A stretch of DNA of 64,000 nt. Source: Candidatus Latescibacterota bacterium. Lineage in GTDB: Bacteria; Latescibacterota; UBA2968; UBA8231. Shown in pieces: positions 9,914 through 35,867 of the stretch. A program made the position numbers and the translations under genes. Every line of letters begins with the position of its first letter. Position 1 is the stretch's first letter. The stretch spans positions 1,920,001 to 1,984,000 of the forward strand of contig CBDAOB010000004.1 of the NCBI GenBank assembly GCA_965197905.1. Reading direction: 5' to 3'. Under the pieces are notes generated by a model. The model saw nothing but the letters and a program-made list of their open reading frames with translations, was not told the origin of the DNA and ran no database searches.

Positions 9914-9918
9914 TCTCT

Positions 9919-11073: not shown

Positions 11074-11103
11074 CCCGCCTGCCATTGCCGGCCCAACGCC
11101 GCA

Positions 11104-13693: not shown

Positions 13694-13708
13694 AATGGCA
13701 ATCCTGAT

Positions 13709-16491: not shown

Positions 16492-16655
16492 TGTGCTGTC
16501 GCAGAAATCTGCCAACATACAGCCGCCGATCCATCGCGATTCGCCGCGTTGACTTCGTTCGCCGTACTCCACCAGTACGGCTCGCTCAGCCGCCTTACGA
16601 ACCGCGCGCATCGACGGCCGAATTTTGTCGACTTATCTCTGCGACAGCACACTAG
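16488..16655. mobile_element. 168-bp MITE-like element
   Basis: Perfect 18-bp terminal inverted repeats CTAGTGTGCTGTCGCAGA; internal hairpin GCCGTACT-N5-AGTACGGC; no transposase. Confidence 0.8.
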
Positions 16656-16659
16656 CCCG

Positions 16660-17997: not shown

Positions 17998-18064
17998 CAG
18001 CGCCGCCTATTCGCGTCCAGTCCAAGGCGGACGCGGATCTTTCAAACACCAGCTCACACCCGAA

Positions 18065-19294
18065 ATGAACTTTGTTCGTGGTTTTTCCCTTACGGCTGTA
18101 TCCACCGCCCTGGTGTTCGTTCTTGGCTTCGCCAACCAGGTGCTGCTGGCCGACTACCTTGGCAGGGAGGCGTACGGACGTTTGGCGCTGTGGCTCAATA
18201 CGGTCGTCATAGGGGGCATGATTTTCGGCGAATGGCTGAGTCGCGGCAACACCTATGTCGTCGGCAAGACGAATTCCAGGCACGAGCCGCTGCACAACTC
18301 GGTGCTCTACGCCGCCTTGTTGGGGCTTGCGTTGCTGCCAATGGTATTCCTTCAACCGTGGTTCGACCGTGGTGTGGCGCTGCTGCTGGCTGCACTTGTG
18401 GCGATGACCGTGCTGCAGAAGGCGGGACAGGCTATAGCGTTGGGGGAAGACCGGCTCAAGCTGTACTCCGTCGTTCCCCTGGTGTTTATCGCGGCCTATC
18501 TGGCCGGCAACGTTGTCGTGTACCTGTTGGCGTTAGGTCTCAACGAGGTCCTCTACTCCTGGTTTACCGCTACCCTGGTGGCAGCGGCGCTGGTGATCGT
18601 TTTCCTGTGGCCCGGATCGCGCGGCTGGCGATTGGATGCCAGCAGCTTCCGGCGGACCTTCGAGGTGGGGTTGCGGGGGGCCTCCTCTGTAACCTTGATC
18701 TTTTTGATGTTTCGCAGCGATCTGTATCTCGTCGAGTGGTTCATGGGGGAGGCGGCGCTCGGCGTCTACAAGGTCTCTACCAATTTCGCCGAGATGATGC
18801 AGCGCTTGCCCAACGTTGCCGGCCTGGTCCTGTTGCCGAAAGTAATACGCGGGGAGGACGAGAACACCCGGATAACCCTTCAGGTGGCGCGGGGGACGCT
18901 GCTCTTTTCCCTTGGCGCCGCAGCCGGTCTGCTGTTCTTTGGCGATCGGCTTATCGCCTACACCTTTCCCAAATACGAGGACGCCTTCGCGCCGTTGATG
19001 TGGATGCTTCCGGGTCTTCTCCTGGCGGGTTTTGGTTCGGTGCTCAACACCAAGCTTGCCGGCCGCGGGTACCCGCCGGTGACGATCGCTGTTCCCGCGG
19101 TCGCATTGGTTTTAAACGTCGTTCTGAACATGGCGCTGATACCACGCATGGGGTTGGAGGGAGCGGCTATCTCCACCTCTATTGCATACGGAGTGTGGTC
19201 GCTGTCGATGACGGTCTTCTTCCTGCGCTACTCCGGGCTCGGCCTGGGCGCCTTCTTGCGCCGCGCCCAGGCCGACGGTACTATTCATAAATAG
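18065..19294 (+). CDS. Wzx-like oligosaccharide flippase
   Basis: About 12 TM segments; LGREAYG, RSDLYLV, GVY, LIPRMGLEGAAIST. Confidence 0.85.
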   Translation: MNFVRGFSLTAVSTALVFVLGFANQVLLADYLGREAYGRLALWLNTVVIGGMIFGEWLSRGNTYVVGKTNSRHEPLHNSVLYAALLGLALLPMVFLQPWFDRGVALLLAALVAMTVLQKAGQAIALGEDRLKLYSVVPLVFIAAYLAGNVVVYLLALGLNEVLYSWFTATLVAAALVIVFLWPGSRGWRLDASSFRRTFEVGLRGASSVTLIFLMFRSDLYLVEWFMGEAALGVYKVSTNFAEMMQRLPNVAGLVLLPKVIRGEDENTRITLQVARGTLLFSLGAAAGLLFFGDRLIAYTFPKYEDAFAPLMWMLPGLLLAGFGSVLNTKLAGRGYPPVTIAVPAVALVLNVVLNMALIPRMGLEGAAISTSIAYGVWSLSMTVFFLRYSGLGLGAFLRRAQADGTIHK

Positions 19295-19387
19295 CCACTC
19301 GAGATTAATCGACAACCTTCCGAGGTGAATTGAAACTCCCCGCTACGCTACCCGCCTGGCTCGCGCGGTCAGCGCCTACGACGGACC

Positions 19388-20824
19388 ATGACCGCAGCTG
19401 ACCTCCGCCTCGGGCCCATCTGGCTGGACCGAAAATGGTTCGTCGGATTCTTGTGTCTGCAAGCCGGTTTGATCGTGGGTATCCTGCTGCTTCCCATCAT
19501 GTTCTTACAGGTAATTGGCGTCGGTGTGGGCGGTGGGATCCTGCTTAGTCTGCTGGTTCTGCATCCGTGGATCATCGTTCCCGCCATTGTCGCAACCACC
19601 GCACTCGACATCAGTGGCAAGATCATTGAAACGACGGCGTTGGGAATCCCGCTTACCGGATTCCATCTGGCCCTGGGGTTGATGATCGTCGGCTTGGGGG
19701 TCAACACTTTCCTGCGTCGTCGCACCCAGTTTCCTCCGTTCCAATTGGCGGTGCCGCTGTTTCTGCTGTTGGGAGTCATGGCGATATCGTTGACTTATTC
19801 TCCGAATCAACCCGAAGCGACGATCGGATTCATGCGGACGCTGGTGCTGACTTTGTTTCTCTATTTGACCATCGTCATGCTAGAAACCAAAACAGCAATC
19901 AACGCCGTGGTTGTCTCGATGGCGGTGGCGCTCATTGCCGGTTCGGTGCTGGGGGTGGTGCAGATCGTCACCGAAAGTTTCTTCCTTCCCGCCAGCTTCG
20001 TTATAGCCGTCGGTGCGAACGCGCCGCGAGCGACAGGTACCTTTCACAACCCCAATACCTTCGGCACTTTCCTCATGGTCGGCGTGGTGTTTCTCTTTGG
20101 TCTCCTGGTTAACTACCGCACCGGCTGGTGGAAGACGTTGCTGGTGCTGGTTTCCCTGTCGTTCGGAGTCACCGGATTGATAGTTACCTTCAGCCGCGCC
20201 AACTGGGTGGCCGCCCTGGTGGGTATCGTCGTGGCGCTGGCGTTGGCTAGGAAATTGCGCTATCTCTTTGCCGTCTCGGCGATCGGCGTCCTGGCGATTC
20301 TGGCAACGAAGGAGTTCGTGCCGTTCGCCGAGCACATCTTCTTACGCTTCGTATCGATTTTCACCATCTTCGAGCAATTTGGTTCGATGGGGCGCGAATC
20401 GAGTTCGGCGCGCATCTATTTTGTATTCGCCGCGTTCAAGATGTTCCTGGACCATCCGCTCCTCGGTGCCGGCTGGCGCGCGTTCCCGATCATATTCGAC
20501 GATTACAAATCCCCGGATTTCCCCTTTTGGGTGCCCACCAAAGAATCCCACACCCTATTTGCCAACATCCTGGCGGAATTGGGACTGGTCGGTCTGATTG
20601 CAGCAGGCTGGATCGTCTGGCGCACCCTCAGCCACGGTTTCGCGGCCCTAAAACGAATGCGCGACCCGTATTTGCGGGCGCTGGTAGCGGCCCTTTTGTC
20701 CGTCTTTCTGGCTTTTCAGGTTAGCCTTTCGCTCACCGCTGACTTCAGCAACAATTTTCTGTGGATGTTCACCGGCATGCTCTTCGCGGTAACCAGTCTC
20801 GACCAACGCACCGATCCGGCGTGA
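19388..20824 (+). CDS. O-antigen ligase / Wzy polymerase family protein
   Basis: RATGTFHNPN, TFSRANW, HPLLGAGW, SHTLF..ILAELGLVG. Confidence 0.88.
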   Translation: MTAADLRLGPIWLDRKWFVGFLCLQAGLIVGILLLPIMFLQVIGVGVGGGILLSLLVLHPWIIVPAIVATTALDISGKIIETTALGIPLTGFHLALGLMIVGLGVNTFLRRRTQFPPFQLAVPLFLLLGVMAISLTYSPNQPEATIGFMRTLVLTLFLYLTIVMLETKTAINAVVVSMAVALIAGSVLGVVQIVTESFFLPASFVIAVGANAPRATGTFHNPNTFGTFLMVGVVFLFGLLVNYRTGWWKTLLVLVSLSFGVTGLIVTFSRANWVAALVGIVVALALARKLRYLFAVSAIGVLAILATKEFVPFAEHIFLRFVSIFTIFEQFGSMGRESSSARIYFVFAAFKMFLDHPLLGAGWRAFPIIFDDYKSPDFPFWVPTKESHTLFANILAELGLVGLIAAGWIVWRTLSHGFAALKRMRDPYLRALVAALLSVFLAFQVSLSLTADFSNNFLWMFTGMLFAVTSLDQRTDPA

Positions 20825-21972
20825 AGCTGTTAGTCACCTCGCACCTCTACCCAAGCCTCCTTTCCTATACCGGAGGCAGTTTTGTTCAGAACCAGGTTCG
20901 CTTTCTAAGAGAGTACTGCGACATCCAGGTCGTTGTGCCGACCCCCTGGTTTCCCTTGCCTTTTTTTCCGCGGTGGAGTGCGCACAGAAAGCTGCCACAA
21001 CGCGAACAGGTCGATGGCATCGAAGTGCTGCGACCGCGGTACGTCACCTTGCCGCGACGAATCTTATTTTCAGGGGTTTGGCGTTCCTACCTCGCCGCCA
21101 TGGAAGCGTCGGCTGAGATCGGTGCCGATCTGGTGCACGCACACTGCGCCTACCCGGACGGTTACGCCGCCATCGAATATGGGCGCCGACATCAGGTCCC
21201 CGTGGTGATCACCGTCCACGGCCACGACATCAAGGTGTTGCCTGAGGCCAACCCACAATGGCGGCAGCAGATCGCTCAGGCCTTGGAGGATGCGTCAGCC
21301 GTTATCGCCGTCAGCGAGGATCTGGCATCGAGGGTACGGGACCTGGGAGTTTCCCCCGGTAAGATTCACACCATTCCCAACGGTGTGGACTGCGACCTGT
21401 TTGAGCCCGATCTGTCGCGCGCCCCGGGAACCGAGGGCTGGCACCTCCTCTACGTTGGGCGGTTCGATCCCGCCAAGGGGATTGGCATTCTTCTCGAGGC
21501 GTTTGCGGGGGTGGTGCGCAAGATTCCCGAATGCCGATTGACACTCGTTGGCGGCAACGAGGCCACGGGATCGGAGGATCGCTTTAAGGGTCAGATGGAG
21601 GCGCTCGAGCTCGATCACCGCGTCAGCTGGCATCGAGAGGTCCAATGGGATCAGATTCCCGTCTACATGCGGCGTGCCGACCTCTTCGTGCTGCCAAGTT
21701 TTTCCGAGGGGTTGCCGTTGTCGCTCATCGAATCGATGGCGTGCGGGTTGCCTATCGTCGCAACCCGATGTGGCGGACCTGAGGAAGCGGTGGACGACTC
21801 GGTGGGTCGGTTGGTGGCGGTGGGAGATGTCGAAGGACTGGAGTCGGCGATTTTACATGTTGTCCGCAACTACGATAAGTTCGACCGGGCGGCGATCCGA
21901 ACCCGGGCACAGCGATTATACGATTACCGCAACATCGCCCGTCGCATCAACGATCTCTACAGATCGTTGTGA
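20821..21972 (+). CDS. GT4 glycosyltransferase (TuaC-like)
   Basis: HAHCAYPDG, TVHGHD, VGRFDPAKG, PSFSEGLPLSLIESMACGLP. Confidence 0.9.
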   Translation: MKLLVTSHLYPSLLSYTGGSFVQNQVRFLREYCDIQVVVPTPWFPLPFFPRWSAHRKLPQREQVDGIEVLRPRYVTLPRRILFSGVWRSYLAAMEASAEIGADLVHAHCAYPDGYAAIEYGRRHQVPVVITVHGHDIKVLPEANPQWRQQIAQALEDASAVIAVSEDLASRVRDLGVSPGKIHTIPNGVDCDLFEPDLSRAPGTEGWHLLYVGRFDPAKGIGILLEAFAGVVRKIPECRLTLVGGNEATGSEDRFKGQMEALELDHRVSWHREVQWDQIPVYMRRADLFVLPSFSEGLPLSLIESMACGLPIVATRCGGPEEAVDDSVGRLVAVGDVEGLESAILHVVRNYDKFDRAAIRTRAQRLYDYRNIARRINDLYRSL

Positions 21973-21975
21973 ACA

Positions 21976-23136
21976 TCAGCTGCTGCCAGAAGTCAGCAGC
22001 GACCTGTAGAAGTCCACGAGGGCAGGGCTCTGGCAATCCCAATTGTACTTGTTAAGGACCATTTGCCGACCTCTTGACCCCATCCGTTTTCGTTCAACCG
22101 GATCACCGAGTAGTCGTTTGACGGCTTCGAGAACAGCTGTGGGGGACAACGGGTCGACGGCGACCCCACATTCTGCTTCATCGATAATCTGTTTCCACAG
22201 CGGGAAGTCCGATACCACGACTGCTTTCCCCATCATCATATACTCGAACATCTTCGTTGGCAGCGAACGCAGATAGTTGGGGTCGGGGTGTAGCAGGGCC
22301 AATCCGACGTCGGCGGCGAGAATGCGGCGGTGCACCTCGTCGTGCGACACCGGGCCAGTGAAGTCTACATTCTCTTCGATGCCGTATCGATGCACCAGGT
22401 CACGTGCCTGCCGCTCTTCCTGTTGTGAACCGACGGGTCCCACCAGGTGGAGAGATATATCCGGCTGCTCCGGTTTCAGATTGCGCACCAGGGTGAGCAT
22501 GTCGAACAAGCCCCGTAAAGCGGTTAGACTGCCGATATAGACCAACACCGGACCTTTGCCGTTTTCGACGACAGCGGGGCGGTAATAGTCGGCGTAGGCC
22601 AACAGCGGGTAATTCAGCACGACCAGTGACTTCTTTGCGCCGTAGTAGCGCGCGTAGGCGTGATCCGCCAGGGTGACGGCGTCGAAAAATCGCAGGGCAA
22701 TCAACTCTATGGCGCGATACAGCCATGCCATGCAGGCTCTCAGGGGAAGCGGAATCCACTTCTTGCTGCGTATCGATTCCGGCACGTCTTCGTGTACGTC
22801 GTATACCAGAATCGAACCGGTGAGCATCTTGAGAATCAGACAGACGGGGATCAGTTCCGGATCATGAAAGATATATACATCAGCCTTTCGTCTCAGCGCC
22901 AGGCGCAAGACACGTGAGGTGGCCAGCATGCGCCGTCCCCTGTTTTTGGGAACGGGGAGCGGTATTACCTCGATGCCGCCGGCGTCACAGGTGGTTTGGT
23001 CCTCGAGTGCGACAACGCTAACCCGAAATCCTGCGTTGGCGAGAGTGCGTGCTTCTGCCTGGAACATGCGAACGTCAAAGGTGAAATGCACGGAGCTGAG
23101 TATGCAAATGTGCTCAGGCATCGATCTCGTATGCAA
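21976..23136 (-). CDS. GT4 glycosyltransferase
   Basis: SSVH..DVRMF..EA, HDPEL, YDVHED, PTKMFEYM. Confidence 0.9.
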   Translation of the reverse strand: MHTRSMPEHICILSSVHFTFDVRMFQAEARTLANAGFRVSVVALEDQTTCDAGGIEVIPLPVPKNRGRRMLATSRVLRLALRRKADVYIFHDPELIPVCLILKMLTGSILVYDVHEDVPESIRSKKWIPLPLRACMAWLYRAIELIALRFFDAVTLADHAYARYYGAKKSLVVLNYPLLAYADYYRPAVVENGKGPVLVYIGSLTALRGLFDMLTLVRNLKPEQPDISLHLVGPVGSQQEERQARDLVHRYGIEENVDFTGPVSHDEVHRRILAADVGLALLHPDPNYLRSLPTKMFEYMMMGKAVVVSDFPLWKQIIDEAECGVAVDPLSPTAVLEAVKRLLGDPVERKRMGSRGRQMVLNKYNWDCQSPALVDFYRSLLTSGSS

Positions 23137-23217
23137 AAACGCTAGGAAAAATCCGTGGTTGGTGGTGTGGGATTAGAGCGCTTGACGTGTGTAGCAATCC
23201 AATGGCGAGAGGCGTTC

Positions 23218-23246
23218 TTGACATCCGCAGAACCCTCTGTTATTGT
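23218..23246 (+). promoter_or_regulatory. Sigma70-like promoter
   Basis: TTGACA-N17-TATTGT with an extended TG, upstream of the carbamoyltransferase. Confidence 0.7.
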
Positions 23247-23310
23247 GTCATTTTAGGCCCGATTCAATATAAGCTATGGTCGTCCTACTTGCCCGTAGCG
23301 AGAAAGCTAA

Positions 23311-25023
23311 GTGTCGATATTCCTCGGATTGTTTGACGGGCACAACGCCTCGGCGTCGGTCCTCTGCGACGGTCGAATAGAGAAGGCATTTCAGGAAGAA
23401 CGCCTCAGCCGCACCAAGAATCACTTCGGCCCCCCCGTCCAAGCCACCCAAGAAATCCTTGCGCTTCTCGGCGCCATGCCCGCCGATGTAGACAAGGTTT
23501 GCCTCGTGTCACGCTACATCCCGGCTCCACGACATCCGCGCTCGATCAAAGACCTGTTCGACGAGCGTTACAGAAACGGTGTTCGTCAGCGGTTGGTACG
23601 GACCTGTGCGAATATCAACTTCTACAGAACGCTGCGAAGTCGGCAACGCATGCAACAGCGCCGGGAGGTGGTCGCTGAATGGGGCTTCGATCCAAATCGG
23701 ATCGAGTTTTGCGATCACCACCAAGCCCACGCGGCCAGCGCCTACTATGGACTGCGGAAAGACGATCAACCCTATCTGATTTTGACCCTGGATGGCGGAG
23801 GTGACGGTCTATCCGGATCGGTTTGGGTGGGAAACAAAGGTGCGCTGGCGCCGGTGGCAACCATCCCACAAGCCGACAGTCTGGGAGAGATATACGCCGC
23901 AACGACCCACTATCTTGGGTTTATGCCCCTTGAGCACGAATACAAACTCATGGGTATGGCTCCCTACGGCGCCGACGGATACGCCCAAGATGTTGCGCGC
24001 CTGTACGGAAACTACGTAGATCTCGACGGTCGAGATCCGCTCCGCTTCGCCCGCAAGGTGCCCGAGCCCCTATCGCGCATCGGGCCTCGACTACAGAACG
24101 ATCTGCGGCGCGTCCGCTTCGACAACATCTGTTCGGGGTTGCAGTTGTTCACCGAAAGCCTGATTAAACGCTGGGTCCAAGCGTGCGTCGAAAAGACCGA
24201 CGTATCTCGGGTTCTCGCCGCCGGCGGCGTGTTTATGAACGTTAAGGCGAACAAGGTGATTGGCGAGCTGGACTGCATCGAGTATTTCGAAGCACTACCG
24301 TCCTGCGGAGACGAGACACTACCCTTCGGCGGGTGTTATCTGGTTTCGGAGGCCGCCGGTCAAGAGACTCAGCCCTTGGACCACTGTTACCTGGGCAACG
24401 ATCTGGCGTTGGAGGAGTGCCGGGCAGCGTTAGCACCGTTAGACCAGGTGGCGGTGGAAGAGCCGAAAGATCTGGAGTTGCGCACCGCCCAACTTCTGGC
24501 TTCCGGCAAGATTGTCGCGCGCGCCGCAGGTCCGATGGAGTTTGGAGCGCGGGCACTCGGGAACCGATCCATCCTCGCCGATCCGATCAACCAGGACGTG
24601 GTGCGGATCATCAACAGAATGATCAAGAACCGGGATTTTTGGATGCCCTTTGCCCCTGTGGTTTGCAGCGACAAAGCATCTCTCTATTTCGACAATCCGA
24701 AACAGCTGCCATCGCCGTACATGATGAACACCTTTGGCTCATCCAGCCGGCGTGGCGAGTTCATGGCGGCCGTACACAATGCCGATCTCACGGCGCGCCC
24801 ACAGCTGCTGCAGCCCGGCCAGAACGATCGGTACGAGGCGGTGCTGAAGCACTTCGGAGATCTCACCGACCGACACGTGCTGCTCAATACCTCCTTCAAC
24901 CTGCACGGCGAACCGATTGTCTGCACCGCCAAAGACGCGGTCCACGTTTTCGCGAACTCGGGCTTGGACCACATGATATTGGGTCCTCTGCTGGTTTCGA
25001 AGCAACGCAATACCCAATGCTAG
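23311..25023 (+). CDS. NodU/CmcH-family carbamoyltransferase
   Basis: HNASA, QEERLSRTK, HHQAHAASAYY, LDGGGD, EYKLMGMAPYG, EFGARALGNRSILA, LLNTSFNLHGEPIV. Confidence 0.95.
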   Translation: MSIFLGLFDGHNASASVLCDGRIEKAFQEERLSRTKNHFGPPVQATQEILALLGAMPADVDKVCLVSRYIPAPRHPRSIKDLFDERYRNGVRQRLVRTCANINFYRTLRSRQRMQQRREVVAEWGFDPNRIEFCDHHQAHAASAYYGLRKDDQPYLILTLDGGGDGLSGSVWVGNKGALAPVATIPQADSLGEIYAATTHYLGFMPLEHEYKLMGMAPYGADGYAQDVARLYGNYVDLDGRDPLRFARKVPEPLSRIGPRLQNDLRRVRFDNICSGLQLFTESLIKRWVQACVEKTDVSRVLAAGGVFMNVKANKVIGELDCIEYFEALPSCGDETLPFGGCYLVSEAAGQETQPLDHCYLGNDLALEECRAALAPLDQVAVEEPKDLELRTAQLLASGKIVARAAGPMEFGARALGNRSILADPINQDVVRIINRMIKNRDFWMPFAPVVCSDKASLYFDNPKQLPSPYMMNTFGSSSRRGEFMAAVHNADLTARPQLLQPGQNDRYEAVLKHFGDLTDRHVLLNTSFNLHGEPIVCTAKDAVHVFANSGLDHMILGPLLVSKQRNTQC

Positions 25024-26162
25024 CGGCAATTCTGGCAGCGGCGGCGATTCTTATTTTTTACACCTACCTGCTTTATCCCGCCCTGTTGTGGTTACTTACG
25101 TTCTGGCGCAAGACGGCGACCCTCGACGACGCTGCGGAGCTACCCAGGGTTTCACTGGTACTTGCTGCGTATAACGAAATAGCTGTCATCGCCGCCAAGC
25201 TGGAAAATGCTCTCGGTCTCGCGTTTCCAGCGAAAAATCTCGAGATCATCGCCGTGTCTGACTGTTCGGAGGATGGCACCGATGAAGCTATCCTCGCTTT
25301 TCGCGATCGCGGCGTACTTTTCCATCGCATGGAACGGCAAGGCGGCAAAACTCTAGCCCAGAACGCGGCAGCGAAATTGGCTACAGGCGAGATTCTCGTG
25401 TTTTCGGACGCCAACAGCATCTTTGCTAGCGACGCACTCACGCACCTTCTGCGTCCTTTCGCCGACTCGAGGGTAGGGGCGGTATGTGGTGAACTACGAT
25501 ACCGCAACCCGGGCGATGAAGGTGCGGGGAAAGGTGAGGGCCTCTACTGGCGTTACGAGCGGTTTCTCAAGCGACGGGAGAGCCTCTTGAGCTCGACCCT
25601 CGGGGCCAATGGGGGCATTTATGCCGTCAGACGGGCGCTTTTCGACGAGCTGGATCAGGAGATTATCAGCGACTTCATAATGCCGGTTCGCGTATGGCGA
25701 AAAGGGTTCCGGGTGGTGTACGCACCCGAGGCGGTGGCGGTGGAAACCACCGGCGCCACCTTCCGAGACGAATTTCGCCGACGTCGCCGCATCATCGCGC
25801 GCAGTTGGTACGGCTTGTGGAGCGAGTCGGGGGTTCTGAATCCGCTGCGGCACGGATACTTCGCGTGGCAGATGTTCTCACATAAGGTGATGCGATGGCT
25901 GGTCCCCGTGTTCATGACACTTGCCTTCGTCACCAATCTGCTCCTGCTCGAGCATTCGTTTTTCCTATACCTGCTGTATGCTCAGATCGCGTTCTATGGA
26001 ATGGCGGTGGTCGGCTGCATCGACACTCGATTTCTCGGCCGCACCTTTCCCTTCTATGTGCCTGCCTACTTCTGCGCCACCAACCTGGGCGCGCTCTTCG
26101 GATTGTGGAGCTTTCTTTCTGGTCGGCGAATCTCCACTTGGAAACCGGTAGAACGCCGGTGA
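25017..26162 (+). CDS. GT2 glycosyltransferase with TM segments
   Basis: AAYNE, SDCSEDGT, FSDAN, YWRYE, GANGGIYAVR, EFRRRRRI. Confidence 0.9.
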   Translation: MLAAILAAAAILIFYTYLLYPALLWLLTFWRKTATLDDAAELPRVSLVLAAYNEIAVIAAKLENALGLAFPAKNLEIIAVSDCSEDGTDEAILAFRDRGVLFHRMERQGGKTLAQNAAAKLATGEILVFSDANSIFASDALTHLLRPFADSRVGAVCGELRYRNPGDEGAGKGEGLYWRYERFLKRRESLLSSTLGANGGIYAVRRALFDELDQEIISDFIMPVRVWRKGFRVVYAPEAVAVETTGATFRDEFRRRRRIIARSWYGLWSESGVLNPLRHGYFAWQMFSHKVMRWLVPVFMTLAFVTNLLLLEHSFFLYLLYAQIAFYGMAVVGCIDTRFLGRTFPFYVPAYFCATNLGALFGLWSFLSGRRISTWKPVERR

Positions 26163-26165
26163 GCT

Positions 26166-27626
26166 ATGAGTAAGGCCTACGAAAAAGCTCTGCTAATTCT
26201 CGCGGATTTTGCCGTCATCAACCTGGCTTCTGTCCTGTTTCTGTGGATGAAGCTCGCAGGCGGCCAGCTGGAGAACGTGGAGCGCAGCTGGCAACGTTTG
26301 CATCCTCATTCGGAGGAGTCTGTCAGCTTCTGGTATGCCCTGGACTATTATCTCTATCCTTTACTCGCCCTCTATCTATGCTGGCTTCTTCTGTTCGTTT
26401 TCTTCGGCTCCTACCGCAGTCAGGCACCCCAGTCCCGCTTCGACGAAGTACTCGAGCTTTTCAAGGTCGTAACCCTCGGGGTCCTACTTCTCTTTGTCGC
26501 GACGCTCGACCTCGCGCAACCCTTCCGCCTGACGCGAGCACTCATGTTTTCATACTGGTTCGCACTCTTCGCCTCGATCTCGGTAGCGCGGGTGGCGGTG
26601 CGCAGTTTCGAACGGCAGTTGCTGTTGCGTGGCATCGGCAGACGGAACACGGTAATCGTCGGTACTCAAGCCCGGGGCGAGCGCCTGCTACACGATTTGC
26701 GCAACTCTCCGGGCCAGGGTTTCCACGTCATCGGTTTCGTACCTATATCTCCGCAAGAACCGCGGTTCGTGCAAGAAGAGTTACCGGTTCTGGGACCGGT
26801 CAGCGAGCTGTCCCGGATTATCGCAGCGCACGCGGTCGACTCCGTATTGATCGCGCTGCAGTCCAATTCTCACGAAGAAATATTGGACATCGTCGATGCT
26901 TCCGGCGGCCAGCCTGTTTCGTTCAGCATCACGCCGGATCTCTACGACATCGTCACCGGACATGTGCGTACCAATCAGATCCACGGAGTCCCGCTTATGG
27001 AGTTGCGTCCCGAGCTAATGCCAGCTTGGGAGCAGACGGTGAAACGAACCATTGACGCCGCCGTGGCGATCTTGATCGGACTCGGACTTGCACCTCTGTG
27101 GATTCTGGTAGCCCTAGCCATTCTGGTCGACTCCAAGGGACCGGTGTTGTTTCGCCAGAATCGCATCGGTAGAGACGGCCGGGCCTTTACCATTTATAAG
27201 TTTCGATCGATGCATGTCGACGCCGAAGAGAGGACCGGGCCGGTTTGGGTCAAGGGAGAGGATCCGCGCATTACCCGAATGGGGCGTGTACTCCGGGCGC
27301 TCCATCTGGACGAAGTTCCTCAGTGCATCAACTTCCTCAAAGGGGACATGAGCCTGGTCGGGCCCCGTCCGGAGCGCCCCTATTTCGTCGAGTTGTTCAG
27401 CGGGGAGATTCCGTTTTACATGCGGCGATTCAATGTCAAACCGGGGTTGTTGGGCTGGGCTCAGTCCAAACACGAGTTCGATATCAACTCCAGCGACGTG
27501 GTGGCCATCGCGCAAGAGCGATTGGAGTACGATCTCTACTACATCGAGAACATCTCCCTCAAGCTGGATCTGAAGATCATGTTGCGAACGGTCTGGTTTG
27601 TGCTCGCCGGCAAGAGCACGCGCTGA
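26166..27626 (+). CDS. Undecaprenyl-phosphate glycosylphosphotransferase (WcaJ/WbaP-like priming transferase)
   Basis: YKFRSM, DPRIT..GR.LR..HLDEVPQ..N.LKGDMSLVGPRPERP. Confidence 0.93.
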   Translation: MSKAYEKALLILADFAVINLASVLFLWMKLAGGQLENVERSWQRLHPHSEESVSFWYALDYYLYPLLALYLCWLLLFVFFGSYRSQAPQSRFDEVLELFKVVTLGVLLLFVATLDLAQPFRLTRALMFSYWFALFASISVARVAVRSFERQLLLRGIGRRNTVIVGTQARGERLLHDLRNSPGQGFHVIGFVPISPQEPRFVQEELPVLGPVSELSRIIAAHAVDSVLIALQSNSHEEILDIVDASGGQPVSFSITPDLYDIVTGHVRTNQIHGVPLMELRPELMPAWEQTVKRTIDAAVAILIGLGLAPLWILVALAILVDSKGPVLFRQNRIGRDGRAFTIYKFRSMHVDAEERTGPVWVKGEDPRITRMGRVLRALHLDEVPQCINFLKGDMSLVGPRPERPYFVELFSGEIPFYMRRFNVKPGLLGWAQSKHEFDINSSDVVAIAQERLEYDLYYIENISLKLDLKIMLRTVWFVLAGKSTR

Positions 27627-27663
27627 AAATCTCTCGCGTTGCGGCATCGGTACAGGAATCTCA

Positions 27664-27692
27664 TTGGCTATCGGAATACATATTCCTATAAT
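27664..27692 (+). promoter_or_regulatory. Sigma70-like promoter
   Basis: TTGGCT-N17-TATAAT in an AT-rich intergenic patch. Confidence 0.6.
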
Positions 27693-27719
27693 TGATACGG
27701 AAGAAGGCAGTACTGCCCT

Positions 27720-28157
27720 ATGCGTTGCAACCACATCGCTCTCGACGCGGCCGACCCAGACCGCTACGAAGCCGACTTCACCGCATTCGGTCCCGACCTC
27801 AGCCTCAATTGGAACGGATTCGGCCTGAGGTCGTACTATTACACCTCTACGGAGGAGCTGAACAACGCGCCGGTGGACGAAATCGCGCGCGACGGCTTTA
27901 CCTTAGAGCCTTCCTTCACCCTGTCCCAGGACTCGGACAGATTTCAAGAAATTATGCTCCTGGGTCGCTACAGCGTCGCGGATGAAGAAGACATTGGCGG
28001 AAACACCTATCGACGGACGCAACTTGGGATTGGAGTGAATGCCAAGCTCACTTCCTCGTTCATCGCTCGATTGAGTTACATCGCCCAGGGAGAGGACGAC
28101 GACTTGAACGATCTGGACAACAACGCCTTGACCTTCAGCGTGACAAACGAATTCTAA
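27720..28157 (+). pseudogene. C-terminal remnant of an outer-membrane beta-barrel/porin
   Basis: Amphipathic beta-strand pattern and C-terminal Phe (LTFSVTNEF); only 145 aa and no signal peptide. Confidence 0.6.
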
Positions 28158-28203
28158 CGAACCTCTAGGTCATACCTCGTACACAAAAAGGAGGTTCGTC
28201 CAC

Positions 28204-28776
28204 ATGCATTCATTTACCAGCTGGTGCTCGCGATCAATCCTGATAAGCGCGATCGTGTTGTGCGCTGCGGTTGGGGCGCAAACGAAGATTACTCCGGACC
28301 AGGAAGCAGAGATGTTGCTCAAGGCCCTGTCCTACGATCGCAACCTGGAAAAGCGGTCCGGTTCGGCGATAAACGTCGGCGTTCTCTACACCGGTGACGG
28401 AGAAGCGGAAGCTGCCGCGGTGGCGGCTGCGTTCCAACGAGCCGGAAGAGGCGGTGGAGCTCCCTTGCCCGTTACCGCAACCACGATTCCGTTTACTTCG
28501 GTAAGTGCACTCCTGAAAAAGGTTGAAGGCGAAAATATAAACGCTCTCTATGTCCATCCATCCCTTTCGGCAGCTCTGTCCAGCGTTCAGCAGGTGTCCC
28601 GCGGCAGGAAGATTCTATCCCTGGGAGGATCGAAAGAACTGGTGGAGCGCGGATTGTCGGTGGGCGTGTACATGGGTAAGTCGGCGCCCCGGCTCATTGT
28701 GAATATGAAAGCAGGTAAGGTCGAGGGGCTAGATCTAAAACCAGCAATTCGTCTGGTTGCCAGGGTCGTGAAGTAG
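28204..28776 (+). CDS. YfiR/HmsC-family (DUF4154) periplasmic protein
   Basis: Signal peptide; LLKALSYDRNL, IGVLY-like, LVERGLSVGV, PRLIVN....EG.DL...I..VARVVK; strong RBS AAGGAGG. Confidence 0.75.
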   Translation: MHSFTSWCSRSILISAIVLCAAVGAQTKITPDQEAEMLLKALSYDRNLEKRSGSAINVGVLYTGDGEAEAAAVAAAFQRAGRGGGAPLPVTATTIPFTSVSALLKKVEGENINALYVHPSLSAALSSVQQVSRGRKILSLGGSKELVERGLSVGVYMGKSAPRLIVNMKAGKVEGLDLKPAIRLVARVVK

Positions 28777-28800
28777 ACCGAGCCGCCCCGATCCAACATC

Positions 28801-28841
28801 GGCCCCGAGTCATCTGTAAAGGTGATTCGGGGTTATTTTTT
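28801..28841 (+). terminator. Rho-independent terminator after the yfiR-like gene
   Basis: Stem GGCCCCGAGTCATC / GGTGATTCGGGGTT followed by ATTTTTT. Confidence 0.65.
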
Positions 28842-28974
28842 GGTCAGGAAGGAGCTGCCGCCGGTCGCGGTATTGTTTCCCCGACGTAGGTGATTGTGTA
28901 AATTGTCCTCTCTGAAAGATCGCCGATAAGTGGATGATGCCGAACTCAATTCTCCCGATGGACGGTTAGCTACT

Positions 28975-30515
28975 ATGTCAAGGTTTCGATCTATTCGTCT
29001 CAAGATTGTTGCGCCACTGGCGTTGTTCATCCTCGTCGTGGCGATCTTCAATTCAATCTATTTTCCTTCCAAGGAAGCTGATCGAATCAACGCCATATTT
29101 CAACAGCGTCTCGAGATATCTCTGGCGACATTGGTGTTGGGTACGAGCATTTCGATAAGCTCCGGAAATCTCGAAGGTGCCGAAGCTACCGTGAACCTGC
29201 TCAAGGAAGATGAGCATCTGACCTTTCTCATGGTGCTGGATGATGAGGGGAGCGAGCTGATTCACCACGGCACGTTAGACAGCAAGTATTTTGACGAAAG
29301 TGCTTTGCGAGAACTGCCCGTGGCCGAATTCCAGGAAGTCGGTCCGTACCTCGTCCTCAAAGACAAGATCCAGTTCGACGATGAGTATCTGGGTTCGGCT
29401 ATTATCGGCCTGAACACAGCAGATCGGGAGCGGGAGATCCGCAGCAGCGTAATCCTGACCGTTCTCTTGAGCCTGGTTTTCGCGCTGGTCGGTATCGGGT
29501 TTATCTCCTACGTCACCGGAAGGGTCATCCTGGTCTCACTGGCGAAGTCCGTGCACGTGGCAGAGCAAGTAGCCACGGGGGACTTGAGTGTAGAGATCGA
29601 GACCAGTGGTAACGACGAGGTGGGTCAATTGCTTTCTGCTTTCCGAACGATGACGAGCGGTCTGCGTTCCCTTATCGGCCAGACCCAGCGCTCAGGGATA
29701 CAGATCACATCTTCGGTAACACAGATCGCGGCATCGGGGAAACAATTGGAAGCGACGGTGAACGAGCAAGCGGCGTCCACCAATGAGGTAGTCGCAACGG
29801 CCAAGGAGATTTCGGCCACCTCACAAGAGTTGGTGCGCACGATGGGTGAAGTGTCGGCCATGTCGGAGGAGACCGTAGTCGCCGCCGACAGTGGCCAGCA
29901 GGGGCTGGGCCGTATGGAATCGACCATGCATCAAATGGAAGAAGCCACCCAATCCATTTCCTCCAAACTAGCCATCATCAACGAGAAAGCCGCGAACATT
30001 AACTCCGTTGTTACGACTATCACCAAGGTTGCCGATCAAACGAATCTGTTGTCGCTGAATGCGGCCATAGAAGCCGAGAAAGCAGGCGAGTACGGGGTCG
30101 GGTTTTCGGTGGTGGCACGGGAGATCCGCAGGCTGGCCGATCAGACTGCGGTAGCGACATTGGACATCGAGCAAACGGTCAAGGAGATGCGTTCGGCGGT
30201 ATCCGCGGGGGTGATGAGCATGGACAACTTTTCCGAAGAGGTGCGCCAGGGGGCAGACGAGATTCGCCGTGTCGGATCCCAACTCACGCAGATCATCGAA
30301 CGGGTGCAAGCCCTGCCGCCCCGTTTTCAGACGGTGGAAGAAGGCATGGAAGCTCAGTCTCAAGGGCGCAACAAATCAGCGAGTCGATGGTACAATTGAA
30401 TGAAGCGGCGCAGCAAACTGTTGACTCGCTGCGCGAAACAAACCGGGCATTGGAAAACCTGGGACGGGCATCGCAAGATCTGCAAGGCGAAATTTCCCAC
30501 TTCAAGATCGACTAG
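28975..30515 (+). pseudogene. Methyl-accepting chemotaxis protein (WspA-like), frameshifted near 30365
   Basis: Two TMs, [40 protein letters not shown]; adding one G at 30364-30366 restores [15 protein letters not shown]...FKID*. Confidence 0.85.
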
Positions 30516-30534
30516 GAACTGCGAGCGCGCTGTC

Positions 30535-31767
30535 ATGCAATTGCTCAGCTCCATCGAAGGACTGCTAAAATCCAGGTTGGGTCTCGACCCCCAAGTCCTG
30601 GGACGAAACGTACTGGCCGGAGCCGTTCAGGATCGCATAAAAATCACGTCGTGCCAAAGCATGGAGGTGTACGCTGGTGACCTTGCAACCTCCGCCGCCG
30701 AGTTGGAGGCGCTGGCGGGAAAGCTCCTCGTTCACGAGACGTGGTTCTTTCGCGATCGAGTGCCCTTCGATTACCTGTCTCGGTTCGTCCGCACCGCGCC
30801 CACCAAAGTTGACGGTAGGAAGCTGCGCATTCTGAGCGCGGCCTGCGCCACGGGCGAAGAGCCCTATTCCATCGCCGTAATCCTGCTCGAAACGGGTCTG
30901 AGCCCCGAATCCTTCCAGATCGATGCCCTCGACCTGAACAGAGAAGCGCTACACAAGGCCGAAGCGGCACAGTACTCCGAAAACTCGTTTCGATTCAGCA
31001 CCGATTCTTTCAAAACGTGTTATTTCCACCATGTCGACGGCAGCTACGCACTGACGCCGTCGGTGCGGAAGCTGGTCAATCTGGAACAGGGGAATCTGCT
31101 CGAAACCACCTGGGCCGCAGGAAAAGGCGCCTATGACATCGTCTTCTGCAGGAACCTGCTCATCTATTTGGACGAGAATTCCAGAAATTCGCTCCTTCGA
31201 AATGTAGAGGCGGTCTTGCATCCGGAAGGCCTTCTCTTCGTCGGCGCCGCTGAGGCGGGACAGATGCCCGGAGACCGCTTCGTGCCGGTTAGGCACCCAA
31301 AGTCCTTTGCGTTCCTGCGGAAAACAGCTGCCGGGCGTAAGAGAGCCACGACGGCGGTGAAGGTCCCGTCGCCGCGACAAATGGACATCCACGAATTCCC
31401 TCGTCGACCAACACCACCGCCGGCCGGGGACACCCGTTCCGCCGCGAGCGAACCACGCTCCGAATTGCCGGTGCCGGTATTGGACAGGGCGCGCTTGCTG
31501 GCCGATCGGGGCGACTTGACCGAAGCATCCAAACTCTGCGGTGCACACCTGGAAGAGAACCGCGACGACGCCGAAGGGCACGTGTTGTTGGGACTGATTC
31601 GCGTCGCGGCTGGGGAAGATAGGCAGGCGGAAGATTGTTTCGCCCGAGCGGTCTACCTGGAACCCGACCATCGCGAGGCGCTTGTCCATCTCGCTCTTTT
31701 GGTCGAACGTCGCGGTGATGAACACCGCGCGCAAGTCATCAAACGCCGGCTCGACCGCGTATCGTAG
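30535..31767 (+). CDS. wspC: CheR methyltransferase with C-terminal TPR (WspC-like)
   Basis: VHETWFFRD, ACATGEEPYSIA, IVFCRNLLIY; TPR tail AVYLEPDHREALVHLALL. Confidence 0.88.
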   Translation: MQLLSSIEGLLKSRLGLDPQVLGRNVLAGAVQDRIKITSCQSMEVYAGDLATSAAELEALAGKLLVHETWFFRDRVPFDYLSRFVRTAPTKVDGRKLRILSAACATGEEPYSIAVILLETGLSPESFQIDALDLNREALHKAEAAQYSENSFRFSTDSFKTCYFHHVDGSYALTPSVRKLVNLEQGNLLETTWAAGKGAYDIVFCRNLLIYLDENSRNSLLRNVEAVLHPEGLLFVGAAEAGQMPGDRFVPVRHPKSFAFLRKTAAGRKRATTAVKVPSPRQMDIHEFPRRPTPPPAGDTRSAASEPRSELPVPVLDRARLLADRGDLTEASKLCGAHLEENRDDAEGHVLLGLIRVAAGEDRQAEDCFARAVYLEPDHREALVHLALLVERRGDEHRAQVIKRRLDRVS

Positions 31768-31784
31768 ATCGAGATCAGGCTGCC

Positions 31785-32785
31785 GTGCGAATAGCGATTG
31801 TAAACGATTCGAAACTCGCGATTGAGGCGCTGAGGAGAATTCTGTTCTATGTGCCCGAACACGAGCTGGCCTGGGAAGCGTCCGACGGTGCGGAGGCGGT
31901 GGAGAAGTGTGGGAACGATACACCGGATTTGATATTGATGGATCTGATCATGCCGGCGATGGATGGCGCGGAAGCTACTCGTCAGATCATGGAGGTCAGT
32001 CCGTGCGCCATTCTGATCGTCACCGCTTCGGTAGGTGGAAATGCGGCAAAGGTGTTCCAGGCGATGGGCAACGGTGCGCTGGATGCCATCGACACTCCGG
32101 TTGGGGAACCCGGTGGCGAAGGCGGCGACAGCCTGTTAGCCAAAATTGCCACCATCGGCAAGCTGCTGGGGGACGGGGTGCACCATCGGGGTGAGGTGGC
32201 GGTTCGCCCGCGGACCAAAGCGGCGGTGCCTCCTCTGGTAGTGATCGGTGCTTCCACGGGTGGACCGATGGCGTTGGCGGCCATTCTCTCCAGTTTGCCG
32301 GAGGATTTCGTGGGCGCGATAGTAATCGTCCAACATGTGGACGTCCAGTTCTCCGCCGGCTTGAGCTCCTGGCTGGATACGCAGTCCCGTTTGCCCGTCG
32401 CACTTGCCGAGAAGGGAACCCTGCTTCGAGGCGGTCGTGTGTGGGTAGCCGGTACGAACAATCACATTATAATGACGCCCAATATGGAGCTTCGATACGA
32501 TTCCAGGGTAAGCGCCACTCCGTACCACCCATCTATCGACATCTTTTTCGACAGCGTGGCCGAACACTGGCCTGAAAAAGGCACGGCGGTGCTGCTGACA
32601 GGTATGGGTCGCGACGGCGCCAATGGTCTTAAAAGCTGCGGGACAAGGGTTGGCATACCATTGCCCAGGATGAAAAAACCAGCGTGGTCTACGGCATGCC
32701 GAAGGAAGCCGCTCAGCTCGGCGCCGCAGCCGAGGTACTACCCATCGACAAGATCGGCCTGGCCTTAAAGCGGTCAATGCTTTGA
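31785..32785 (+). pseudogene. wspF: CheB methylesterase with REC domain (WspF-like), frameshifted at 32631-32634
   Basis: MRIAIVND, LMD, GASTGGP, VQHV, LTGMGRDGA; adding one A restores [21 protein letters not shown]...SML*. Confidence 0.85.
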
Positions 32786-32838
32786 AACCATCCCCTTCGC
32801 AAACCCGCTAGATTGGTTACCGTCCCCATCGAATCGCC

Positions 32839-33318
32839 ATGCTGCTACTGATCGTCAAGCTGGGACCTGAAAGATACGCCATCGAGACCAACCAGGTTGC
32901 GGAGGTGATCCCCCGGGTCCGTATGCGCGAGGTGCCTCACGCTCCCGATTTCGTCGTTGGACTCTTCGTATTTCGGGGTGCCGTCGTTCCCGTCATCGAC
33001 CTGCGGAAGCTGATGTGGGGAATGGAATGTGAGCTTTTTCTCAACACGCGCATCGTTCTGGTCCGCCTCGATGACGATAGACTGCTAGGACTCATGGCGG
33101 AGGATGTGACCGACACGAAGCAGTCCACGGAACTGACCAATGTGGAAACCGGCATCGAAGTAGAGAAGGCGCCGTACCTTTCAACCATGGGGGTCGGGGA
33201 AGGGGTAGGCATGGTTCAGCTCATCGACATCTACAAGCTGCTCGATCAAAAAGCGCGGGAGCTGTTGTATTCAAGCGTAGACGAGCTCGAGGGCGATCTG
33301 CAGGCGGGACAATCGTAA
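32839..33318 (+). CDS. wspB: CheW adaptor (WspB-like)
   Basis: ERYAI...V.EVIP, FRGAVVPVIDL, TRIVLV, LLGLMAE.VTD, APYL. Confidence 0.85.
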   Translation: MLLLIVKLGPERYAIETNQVAEVIPRVRMREVPHAPDFVVGLFVFRGAVVPVIDLRKLMWGMECELFLNTRIVLVRLDDDRLLGLMAEDVTDTKQSTELTNVETGIEVEKAPYLSTMGVGEGVGMVQLIDIYKLLDQKARELLYSSVDELEGDLQAGQS

Positions 33319-33321
33319 TCC

Positions 33322-33993
33322 ATGTCGTCCGAGACCGTTCACAATTTCTGCTGGAACAGAATCGGCGTCTGGGGAGACGTCAGCTGCCCCGAACTCGACT
33401 CGGTTTCCCACTGCCACAACTGTCAGATCCACGCGGCGGCCGGGCGCAGCTTGTTGGAACGGCCGGGATCAGACGAGTACCTCGACGAGTGGACGCGGAT
33501 TATTGCGCGGCGCGAACAAGCGCAGAACGCGGAAAACGTTTCGGTCGTGCTCTTCCGCATGGGAGGCGAGTGGCTGGCGCTACCCACGGCGGTGTTCAGC
33601 GAGGTGATAGAAGACCGCGCTATTCACAGCATGCCCCACCGCTCGAGTCGCGTGTTCCTGGGCTTGGTCAACATTCGCGGAGAGATCCAACTGTGTTTCT
33701 CCCTGGCAGCGATCCTCGGTCTTTCGTCTACGGCCGAGAGTGATTCGGTGCAAAGCCACATCGTCTACAAGCGGATGATCGTCGTTCGTCAAGAGCGCAA
33801 CAGCTGGGTGTTTCCCGTGGACGAGGTCTACGGCGTCCATCACTTCGACAACGAGGAACTGGACGAGTCTCCCGTCACGGTTTCGAAGACCGATGTCACC
33901 TTTACCACCGGACTGCTGGCCTGGAACGATCGCAGCGTCGGACTACTCGACGTCGAGCTGTTGTTCAACGCCCTGAAGAGGAGTGCTGTTTGA
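33322..33993 (+). CDS. wspD: CheW adaptor with Cys-rich N-terminus (WspD-like)
   Basis: CWNRIGVWGD.SCPEL....HCHNC characteristic of WspD; LVNIRGEI; FPVDEV. Confidence 0.88.
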   Translation: MSSETVHNFCWNRIGVWGDVSCPELDSVSHCHNCQIHAAAGRSLLERPGSDEYLDEWTRIIARREQAQNAENVSVVLFRMGGEWLALPTAVFSEVIEDRAIHSMPHRSSRVFLGLVNIRGEIQLCFSLAAILGLSSTAESDSVQSHIVYKRMIVVRQERNSWVFPVDEVYGVHHFDNEELDESPVTVSKTDVTFTTGLLAWNDRSVGLLDVELLFNALKRSAV

Positions 33994-35867
33994 GCGCCGG
34001 TGACTCCAATATAGGCGGTGTATCTCTGCTCGACCTCTTTCGGGCCGAAGTCGAGGAGCACACCGGCGTTCTCACCGACGCGCTGCTCGATTTGGAACGG
34101 GATCCCGACAAAGCGCAGGATGTCGAAGCGCTGATGCGTGCGGCGCATTCGGTAAAGGGCGCGGCGCGCATTGTTCAGATCGACGTCGCCGCCGATTTGT
34201 CGCACAAGATGGAGAATTTTTTCGTTGCCGTACAAGAGGGTCGATCGAACCTGACCTCAGAGCACGTGGACACCCTCCTCAAGGGGGTAGACCTGCTTCG
34301 CGTCATCGCTGAGGCGGCCGACGACATCGCCTCCTGGCAAGCGGCGAATCAGGAGGCAGCTACGGCCCTGCTCGCCTCCATCGAGGCGCTGGAATCGATG
34401 CCCATGACCGCCGCCCCTCCCTCGGCCTCGACGGCTACCCCCGACCCATCTCCAGCAGCGGGGGCGAGCGATCTCCTGGACCTGTTCGCCAATGAGATCC
34501 AAAGCCAGGCGGCGGTGCTCAGCGATAGCCTGCTGGCTCTAGAGCGAGATTTGGATTCCGCAGTGGACGTGGAAGGACTCATGCGCGCAGCACACTCCAT
34601 CAAGGGCGCGGCGAGAATCGTCCAGATCGATGTGGCGGCGGAATTGGCCCACGCCATGGAAGACTTCTTCGTTGGCATTCAGCAAGGAAGGGTTCGGGCC
34701 GGCACCGAAAGCGTGGATTTGCTGTTGTATGGCGTCGACGTGTTCGCCTCCCTTGCCACTTTGAGCGGACCGGAGTTTTCGCCCTGGCTGGAGAGTCACA
34801 AAGCGGGCATCGAGGATCTCATTCGGTCCATCACGACAGCGGGCACCAGCCAGGTAGATGGCAGCTCGACGACAACTACGGAACCGCCGCTTTTCGCCTC
34901 TTCCGAACCCAGCCCAGAAGCAGACGAGGACCGGTTGACCGGATCCGCACCGGCTCCGAGCTCGCTCGATGAGCAACGGGATCGAGTTGTCCGCGTTGCC
35001 TCGGAGAACCTGAACCGTCTCATGGGTCTGGTGGGAGAATCGGTGGTGGAAGCTCGGTGGCTGCAACCGTTTGCCGACTCGTTACAACGACTAAAGGGCG
35101 ATCAGTTCGAGGTCGCAACCCTCGTGGATCAGATCAAGGATTCTCTCGAACACTCCTGGTCGCCGGAGCACGCGACGATCCGGTTTCAGGAGCTGCGGGC
35201 GCAGCTGGACGAATGCCGCACCTACTTGGGCGACCGACTCAGCGACCTGGAGATCTACGCTAGGCGCTCGGAGAACCTGTCGGATCGCCTCTATCGCGAG
35301 GTTATAGCCAGCCGCATGCGACCCTTCGCCGACGGCGTCCAGGGGTTTCCCAGATTGGTGCGGGACATCTCCAGGTCGCTGGGCAAGTCCGTCCGACTCG
35401 AGATCGTCGGCAAAGGAACTGAGGTCGACCGGGACATACTGGACAGGCTCGAAGCTCCGCTGAACCACTTGCTGCGAAACTCGTTGGATCATGGCATCGA
35501 AACCGCGGAGGTTCGCAGGAGTGCGGGAAAACCAGAAGAGGGGACGATCCGCTTGGAGGCGCGGCATGCGGCCGGCATGCTGGCCATTTCGGTAGAGGAT
35601 GACGGTTGTGGTATCGACCCCCAAAGCCTGCGGCAAAACATCGTCGGCAAACAGCTGATAGACGCTGAGACCGCGTCGCAGCTGTCCGAAACGGAGCTGA
35701 TCGAGTTCCTGTTTCTGCCCGCGTTTAGTACCGCAGAAGAAGTCACAGAGATTTCCGGTCGCGGTGTCGGGCTGGACGTAGTAAAGAATATGGTGCAACA
35801 AGTGGGAGGGACCTTGCGCGCCGAGTCCCTGATCGAGGCAGTGGAGGATCTCATCGGCTCGGCGTAG
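33990..35867 (+). pseudogene. wspE: CheA-type kinase (WspE-like) with two Hpt domains, lacking CheW and REC domains
   Basis: Two LMRAAHS.KGAARIV motifs, HLLRNSLDHGIE, DDGCGID, ISGRGVGLDVV; then jumps directly to LIEAVEDLIGSA*. Confidence 0.8.

Follow-up and report, generated by a model that had tools for sequence, protein, structure and literature searches.

The window considered here is a stretch of 64,000 nucleotides (C4:1920001-1984000) from the genome of a Candidatus Latescibacterota bacterium (G000; 6.69 Mb, 91% complete), and its part of interest is a run of genes in which the remnant of an outer-membrane barrel gene and a gene for a YfiR-like protein stand before an MCP (methyl-accepting chemotaxis protein) and a set of chemosensory genes. 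A barrel remnant, a YfiR-like open reading frame (ORF), an MCP and a wspC/F/B/D/E-like set had been listed in a preliminary description of this locus, and all were found in place on the plus strand. The order is promoter-like site, barrel remnant, 190-residue ORF, hairpin, MCP, cheR-TPR, cheB, two cheW genes and cheA; a convergent aldolase gene lies downstream of cheA in the window and in its closest relative, a genome of the same genus (G002, locus L012). That genome and one of another genus (G015) serve as the main comparisons, all three being 91-93% complete. The features are as follows.

27664..27692, plus strand: upstream of the barrel gene, a promoter-like site of the sigma-70 type that matches 10 of 12 consensus positions; putative function
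27735..28157, plus strand: 3' third of the gene for an outer-membrane beta-barrel of porin-like type, with 91% identity to the whole G002 barrel over its residues 271-410
28204..28776, plus strand: intact gene for a YfiR/HmsC-like (DUF4154) periplasmic protein of 190 residues, with PF13689 above its cut-off and a YfiR fold
28801..28844, plus strand: intrinsic-terminator-like hairpin with a T tail, 15 pairs at 28801-28834
28975..30515, plus strand: WspA-type MCP with HAMP and a PAS/Cache sensor related to CHASE8; ATG at 28975, frameshifted, ORF stop at 30399
30535..31767, plus strand: CheR-TPR (WspC orthologue), from domain matches and the best match of Ralstonia WspC
31785..32785, plus strand: CheB (WspF orthologue), NF009206 over its cut-off
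32839..33318, plus strand: CheW (WspB orthologue), from a domain match and the best match of Ralstonia WspB
33322..33993, plus strand: CheW (WspD orthologue), from a domain match and the best match of Ralstonia WspD
33990..35867, plus strand: CheA (WspE orthologue) with two Hpt domains, whole in G002 and in sequencing run X12

For the barrel gene, the 5' ~270 codons (two thirds of the gene) are deleted in the window, and the ORF start at 27720 falls within a 41-nt junction sequence; no convincing source of this sequence was found in the genome. The whole barrel in G002 has about 410 residues, and in the G002 operon an insertion element (L012:3656-5053) lies between promoter and barrel. No Pfam family matched the barrel, and the whole G015 orthologue scored 0.97 against the Porin_O_P/Porin_4 clusters of the Atlas. 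Sixty-six relatives were found; their C-terminal residue is Phe and the segment before the barrel is conserved, with residues ~37-57 of the G015 protein, N-terminal to the first strand, mostly at least 80% conserved over 65 sequences. The promoter-like site upstream is the sole one in the region, against 3.1 expected by chance, and a near-identical sequence is present in G002.

For the chemosensory genes, sequence similarity shows that all five che genes, like the signalling domain of the MCP, are Wsp orthologues. The genome-wide best match of each of WspB, WspC, WspD, WspE and WspF from a Ralstonia wsp cluster lies in this locus, so the C/F/B/D/E labels are right. The signalling domain of the intact G015 MCP orthologue, which is 69% identical to that of the window, shares 56-61% identity with its 25 best plasmid matches, and the two of these that were inspected head MCP-cheW-cheR-cheW-cheA-cheB-receiver/cyclase clusters and have signalling arms of equal length. 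No WspR (receiver-GGDEF) gene was identified in the operon of the window or of G002, whose order is A-C-F-B-D-E. G015 carries a cheR fragment only, no free cheW and no adjacent cheB, with a lone CheY-like gene after cheA. A single CheW-containing locus was found in each of G000, G002 and G015. In another Latescibacterota family, two genomes (G051 and G055; loci L066 and L067) have near-canonical wsp-type clusters with longer, unrelated sensors, which suggests a sensor swap in the lineage of the window. By eye, these two clusters end in a receiver-phosphatase-like gene that replaces WspR, with anti-sigma-factor-like genes next in G055, where the ORF list reads without a clean cheR-cheW split.

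The product of ORF 28204 had been assigned to DUF4154, and this assignment is upheld by PF13689, which scored 26.4 bits (cut-off 24.9) and 38.2 bits for the G015 orthologue, and by structural and profile matches to YfiR. Searched with Foldseek, a structure model of the protein (pLDDT 86.6, 12-sequence alignment) first matched the single-domain solute-binding protein (SBP) of R. marinus, RmSBP (PDB 5Z6V, 8WGL; E 1e-8, TM-score 0.60/0.71), then amino-acid-binding SBP domains, and then the YfiR crystal structures 4yn7, 4zhu and 4xjy (E 3e-5, target TM-score ~0.7). A 21-sequence profile, one row of which was E. coli YfiR, reached P. aeruginosa YfiR with E 1.7e-6 and SBP 3lkv with E 0.008; the 12-sequence profile recovered no YfiR from the PDB, and profile alignment with E. 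coli YfiR was weak (P 8%, E 0.004). RmSBP is 16-17% identical to the YfiR-like protein and absent from its 20 sequence-profile matches. The only cysteines, at positions 8 and 20, lie in the signal region; as the mature part is free of them, the redox input described for YfiR in PMC3375315 cannot apply. No plasmid relatives of the protein were found.

For the MCP, the periplasmic segment had been proposed to resemble the PAS-like/CHASE8 domain of YfiN rather than a four-helix bundle (4HB), and this is borne out. The segment sits between two hydrophobic segments, with HAMP and MCPsignal domains after them. In a model with pLDDT 95, based on 90 sequences (the MCP of the window, its G015 orthologue and 88 of 150 search matches), two membrane helices enclose one long and one short helix together with five strands. 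In the VIA search, the structures matched best are PAS/Cache domains, those of WalK (Z 11.6, root-mean-square deviation 2.2, 122 aligned), LuxQ, the LapD orthologue CdgS9 and CitA; as the top seven span Z 10.3-11.6, the fold alone does not single out YfiN, and no YfiN periplasmic structure was among the matches in either fold search. The MCP gave no direct match to Pfam CHASE8 (PF17152) at E<=1, nor to sCache or 4HB. Among the 90 aligned homologues at E<=0.01, CHASE8 was matched in 21 and sCache_3_2 in seven, and no 4HB family was among the best 25 of the 57 families matched. With hhalign, a periplasm-only profile of 16 close homologues aligned at P 94% and E 1.2e-7 over 115 columns with six domains of the CHASE8 type, E. 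coli DgcN among them, as against P 17% for CitA/DcuS and P 0.1% for two WspA-type sensors, which we take to be 4HB; the control scores are lowered, as the control profiles hold two sequences each. Profile alignment with E. coli DgcN including HAMP gave P 72% and E 3.5e-5. The sensor is therefore a single PAS/Cache fold homologous to CHASE8. The column of the YfiN AAVVF-motif Phe, the proposed YfiR contact, holds Ser in the window, and Phe is found in none of nine rows of this sensor clade and its sister, as against 10 of 10 other YfiR-adjacent sensors.

In a synteny survey of 168 Latescibacterota genomes, a YfiR-like match was present in 16 and a member of the close YfiR clade (E<1e-60) in eight. 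The barrel was identified in nine, namely the eight close-clade genomes and, as a 52-residue piece, G106, and it lies directly upstream of the clade yfiR in all eight carriers (in G157 across a contig break). The gene that follows the clade yfiR is an MCP in three genomes (G000, G002, G015), a histidine kinase in two, a sensor relic in two and nothing significant in one; since it varies in this way, the output is swappable. The yfiR-MCP adjacency proposed for the window thus recurs in its own genus (G002) and in another (G015), and in G157, as in metagenome contig L022, yfiR is followed by a histidine kinase whose sensor belongs to the same clade. The relics, of the first ~25 codons of the sensor, are in G014 and G130 (E ~1e-4 and 4e-4 among 114 fragments), whereas a candidate relic in G126 was not significant (E 0.76). 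A related sensor or its 5'-end relic is accordingly found after yfiR in seven of eight genomes, plus L022. Metagenome loci L021, L023 and L024 resemble the loci of G130, G126 and G014 and were left out of the counts. Among more distant yfiR-like loci, 10 of 11 have a related sensor within 1.5 kb, as detected with a profile that included relatives of such sensors; by eye, these sensors are kinases, and a TonB-receptor-like gene lies beside yfiR at eight loci. Trees of 14 YfiR/sensor pairs gave three matching groups, with 12 of 14 pairs alike and G102 and G000 C5 as exceptions; genes are shared among kin and long branches meet, and the match is not evidence of co-evolution.

It is plausible, and on balance probable, that the operon joins a porin/YfiR-like/YfiN-related PAS-HAMP cassette, fused to a WspA-type signalling domain, to a Wsp cascade of the alternative cellular function (ACF) class, and that the YfiR-like protein gates the receptor. 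The YfiR-like protein would bind the periplasmic domain of the receptor and hold it in one signalling state, and a cue at or through the porin would move it off or onto the receptor. HAMP would relay the change to CheW-CheA, with adaptation by CheR and CheB, and the phosphate would pass either to a receiver protein whose gene lies elsewhere or to the product of the CheY-like gene after cheA in G015. The gene identities, the folds, the conserved adjacency and the use of the same cassette to drive a histidine kinase in relatives are observed. Several points weigh against such gating. The Phe of the YfiN binding motif is missing in all four clade sensors that adjoin this YfiR and present in all 10 others, and the sensor of the window has no direct CHASE8 match. 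Four clade sensors lack an adjoining yfiR (the G000 paralogue, a second G015 MCP, a G006 MCP and a G130 MCP), and in G102 the same YfiR clade stands with a kinase that has a Phe-type sensor. The eight genomes are kin, so that the eight of eight barrel-yfiR pairs are not eight independent events, and no fully intact chemosensory copy was seen in G000, G002 or G015. The earlier proposal of a YfiR-type sensor wired into a chemosensory kinase therefore keeps the adjacency, the sensor and the YfiR fold on its side; against it stand the absent Phe, the clade sensors without YfiR, the lack of WspR and the broken copy.

An alternative that is unlikely but carries real weight is that the YfiR-like protein is a small solute-binding protein and that, with a solute imported by the porin, the loaded protein activates the receptor in the manner of LuxP-LuxQ or maltose-binding protein, with no repression involved. 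RmSBP and amino-acid-binding SBP domains outrank YfiR as fold matches, a porin provides the input, members of the sensor clade are found behind two further small periplasmic proteins, and neither the YfiN Phe nor the YfiR cysteines are present. In addition, single-domain SBP genes, RmSBP among them, have been reported near MCP genes, with unknown function (Nam 2023, PMC10805632). However, the protein has one domain only and lacks the cleft between two lobes that typical SBPs possess, the available text of PMC10805632 names no ligand for RmSBP, and the profiles described above are closer to YfiR than to an SBP. Somewhat less likely is a more specific proposal, in which the porin replaces YfiB: its pre-barrel arm would capture the YfiR-like protein and so gate the Wsp-class kinase via a remodelled interface without the Phe, and the sensor clade would dock at least three porin/small-protein pairs. 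The contacts of YfiB and the presumed contacts of YfiN share one surface of YfiR (available text of PMC4655355).

Doubtful, and less likely again, is the explanation that porin-yfiR and the receptor are historical neighbours only, the Phe-less sensor having lost its YfiR contact to sense alone and to be transcribed apart, past a terminator. Besides the missing Phe, it is favoured by clade MCPs without yfiR, by porin-yfiR pairs that are intact in G014, G130 and G126 with no sensor behind them, and by the hairpin between the genes in this genus. The hairpin is the terminator that the preliminary description had raised as a caveat; it is present, also in G002, but the caveat is a weak one, because relatives outside the genus have 10-86 nt between the genes or relics, G102 (157 nt) excepted. 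The gap from yfiR to the sensor is 23-86 nt in G157, L022 and G015, that from yfiR to the relic is 10 nt in G014 and G130, and among eight spacers folded a strong hairpin was found in G000 and G002 only. As a class, terminator-like matches are at chance level in the region (eight found, 7.8 expected). The pairing also persists through the swap between MCP and kinase outputs, and the related sensors at 10 of 11 distant loci, with the limit on that profile noted above, argue in the same direction.

The gating of a Wsp-class receptor by a YfiR-like protein would in any case concern the ancestral operon, as the copy in the window is a decaying remnant that cannot work as written. With the porin, the receptor and the kinase damaged, the pathway is very probably dead in this strain, and the yfiR-like gene, still intact, may be left over from it. 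The preliminary description had not noted the breaks in the MCP, cheB and cheA. In the MCP, the last ~50 residues are replaced as the result of a one-base frameshift near 30362; a 6.5-kb contig of run X1, which may be the source sample, has the same shift, and the sole gap of this contig relative to the window is the one in cheB at 32630. The cheB frameshift is an assembly error, since runs X1, X2 and X12 all have one extra base there. In cheA, an in-frame 852-nt deletion at 35828/35829 has removed 284 residues, comprising the CheW (P5) domain, a core domain of CheA (PMC10782961, available text), and nearly all of the receiver. The junction lies within a near-perfect 7-nt microhomology, and an X1 piece ends exactly at it; as no read-contig among the matches listed bridges the junction, the deletion is likely rather than confirmed by reads. 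A misassembly that placed the missing CheA half elsewhere was ruled out, this part being absent from the genome. The deleted form of the barrel is spanned by run X2 (contig 27300-29639, no differences), and run X12 has 872 letters there. No RNA data set was listed as carrying the locus. An intact operon in run X12 was ruled out, as its contigs break at 29056-29063. These are the eight bases duplicated around the insertion element that splits the G002 MCP (~2.5 kb, L012:7445-10005, with a transposase and an exonuclease-like ORF), and X12 presumably carries the same insertion. Because every chemosensory copy seen is damaged, the whole operon is visible only by overlaying damaged copies. It is very improbable that the breaks are assembly errors in an operon that works in the organism: the cheB break is such an error and the cheA junction is unbridged among the matches listed, but the barrel deletion and the MCP frameshift are spanned by X2 and X1 contigs, respectively, and the cheA deletion is in frame, at microhomology; the genome lacks the missing part, and an X1 piece stops at the junction.

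With respect to known systems, the locus resembles YfiBNR (TpbB/DgcN, HmsCDE) of P. aeruginosa and E. coli in having a YfiR-fold periplasmic protein beside a transmembrane-PAS-like-transmembrane-HAMP protein. It differs in its MCPsignal rather than GGDEF output, in the porin-like barrel upstream rather than the OmpA-like lipoprotein YfiB, and in lacking the AAVVF Phe and the four conserved YfiR cysteines described in PMC3375315 (available text). No YfiB was found in the operon; matches of E. coli YfiB fall elsewhere in the genome. According to the same available text (Malone 2012), YfiR and YfiN co-immunoprecipitate and their outputs are modular, and a Polaromonas 'YfiN' with an MCP output is listed from in silico work (Discussion, Table S4). 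The divergent YfiR-YfiN core outlined there is similar to the system of the window, with YfiR beside a YfiN-type sensor, an MCP or kinase output and no yfiB, but its hydrophobic binding residues are reported to be conserved, whereas the sensor here has lost the Phe. The available parts name no Wsp cascade for the Polaromonas entry, and neither porin nor TonB is mentioned in the eight supplement files of PMC3375315.

The resemblance to Wsp, of the ACF class, lies in the WspA-type signalling domain, the two CheW proteins, CheR-TPR, CheB and, in G002, a CheA with a C-terminal receiver. The differences are a PAS/Cache instead of a helical sensor, the order A-C-F-B-D-E instead of ABCDEFR, the lack of WspR, the two Hpt domains and, in the window, the loss of P5 and receiver from CheA. 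The outer-membrane protein, YfiR-like protein and sensor logic is shared with the NCBIfam families NF053591 (TOL_0243 family YfiR-like) and NF053592 (YfiR-like-associated histidine kinase), although the scores are weak and far below both cut-offs (15.1 against 125 and 26.7 against 194, respectively), and the operon family of the window has a ~410-residue porin in place of the TonB-dependent receptor of that trio. In its logic the system is akin to a divergent Yfi core that feeds an ACF cascade, but it belongs to neither YfiBNR nor Wsp. The arrangement had been described as not known to be characterised. No experimental study of a YfiR-gated chemoreceptor was found in the literature, drawn mostly from beyond subscription journals, and PMC6304351, PMC11194511 and PMC8320348 in their available parts are background, with nothing on a porin-YfiR-MCP-Wsp arrangement. 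However, an MCP output of the YfiR-YfiN core had already been predicted in 2012, and what is new is a porin as input, an output of the Wsp class and a sensor clade that lacks the Phe.

Most YfiR-like genes at the loci examined have no adjacent yfiB and lie behind an outer-membrane barrel instead, and no explanation of how barrel-linked YfiR systems receive their signal was found in the literature. In close relatives, one porin-YfiR-sensor front end is combined with either a chemoreceptor or a histidine kinase; this amounts to a natural output swap, which provides testable pairs in the G015 MCP and the G157 and L022 kinases. If a receptor of the WspA type is indeed gated by YfiR, a single pathway once combined two routes of envelope sensing that Pseudomonas keeps apart. 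The value of the case is limited by the earlier prediction of the concept, by uncultured hosts and by the damage in every chemosensory copy seen.

For the paralogous MCP of the window's own genome, the only other MCP in G000 (C4:415010-416551, within L001, C4:415010-418431), identity is 60% and there is an internal stop. It is preceded by a different Porin_O_P-like barrel and a 186-residue signal-peptide protein, for which no Pfam, YfiR-profile or Atlas match was found; this locus follows the same cassette logic with another periplasmic partner. A third barrel (341-350 residues) with a periplasmic protein of 161-172 residues stands before a related kinase in G000 (C3:462065-464750, L003); in G130 (C159; L085:9043-12893) such a pair is oriented divergently to a clade MCP. 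The small protein had no Pfam match, and we take it to resemble a phosphate-binding-protein domain.

Just upstream of the operon lies a large polysaccharide-synthesis region (window 6445-14674 and 16549-27626) with glycosyltransferases, a ligase-like membrane protein, a carbamoyltransferase-like gene and a sugar transferase. Polysaccharide genes adjoin the locus in two genera, and G002, G014 and G130 share the linkage of sugar transferase, barrel and yfiR, which G015 lacks. As a possible output context, the genome has flagellar genes (10 flagellin-family and five FliM matches) and few GGDEF domains. A gene that combines receiver-like and GGDEF parts and is frameshifted close to its 3' end (G000:C5:1639761-1640700) is a possible output of the cascade. 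No flagellar-class chemotaxis cluster and no pilT match were found in G000, G002 and G015. Across G000, G002, G015, G130 and G157 there are 8-10 flagellin-family and 3-8 FliM matches per genome, and many of the FliM copies lie away from the flagellar cluster, beside receiver or kinase genes.

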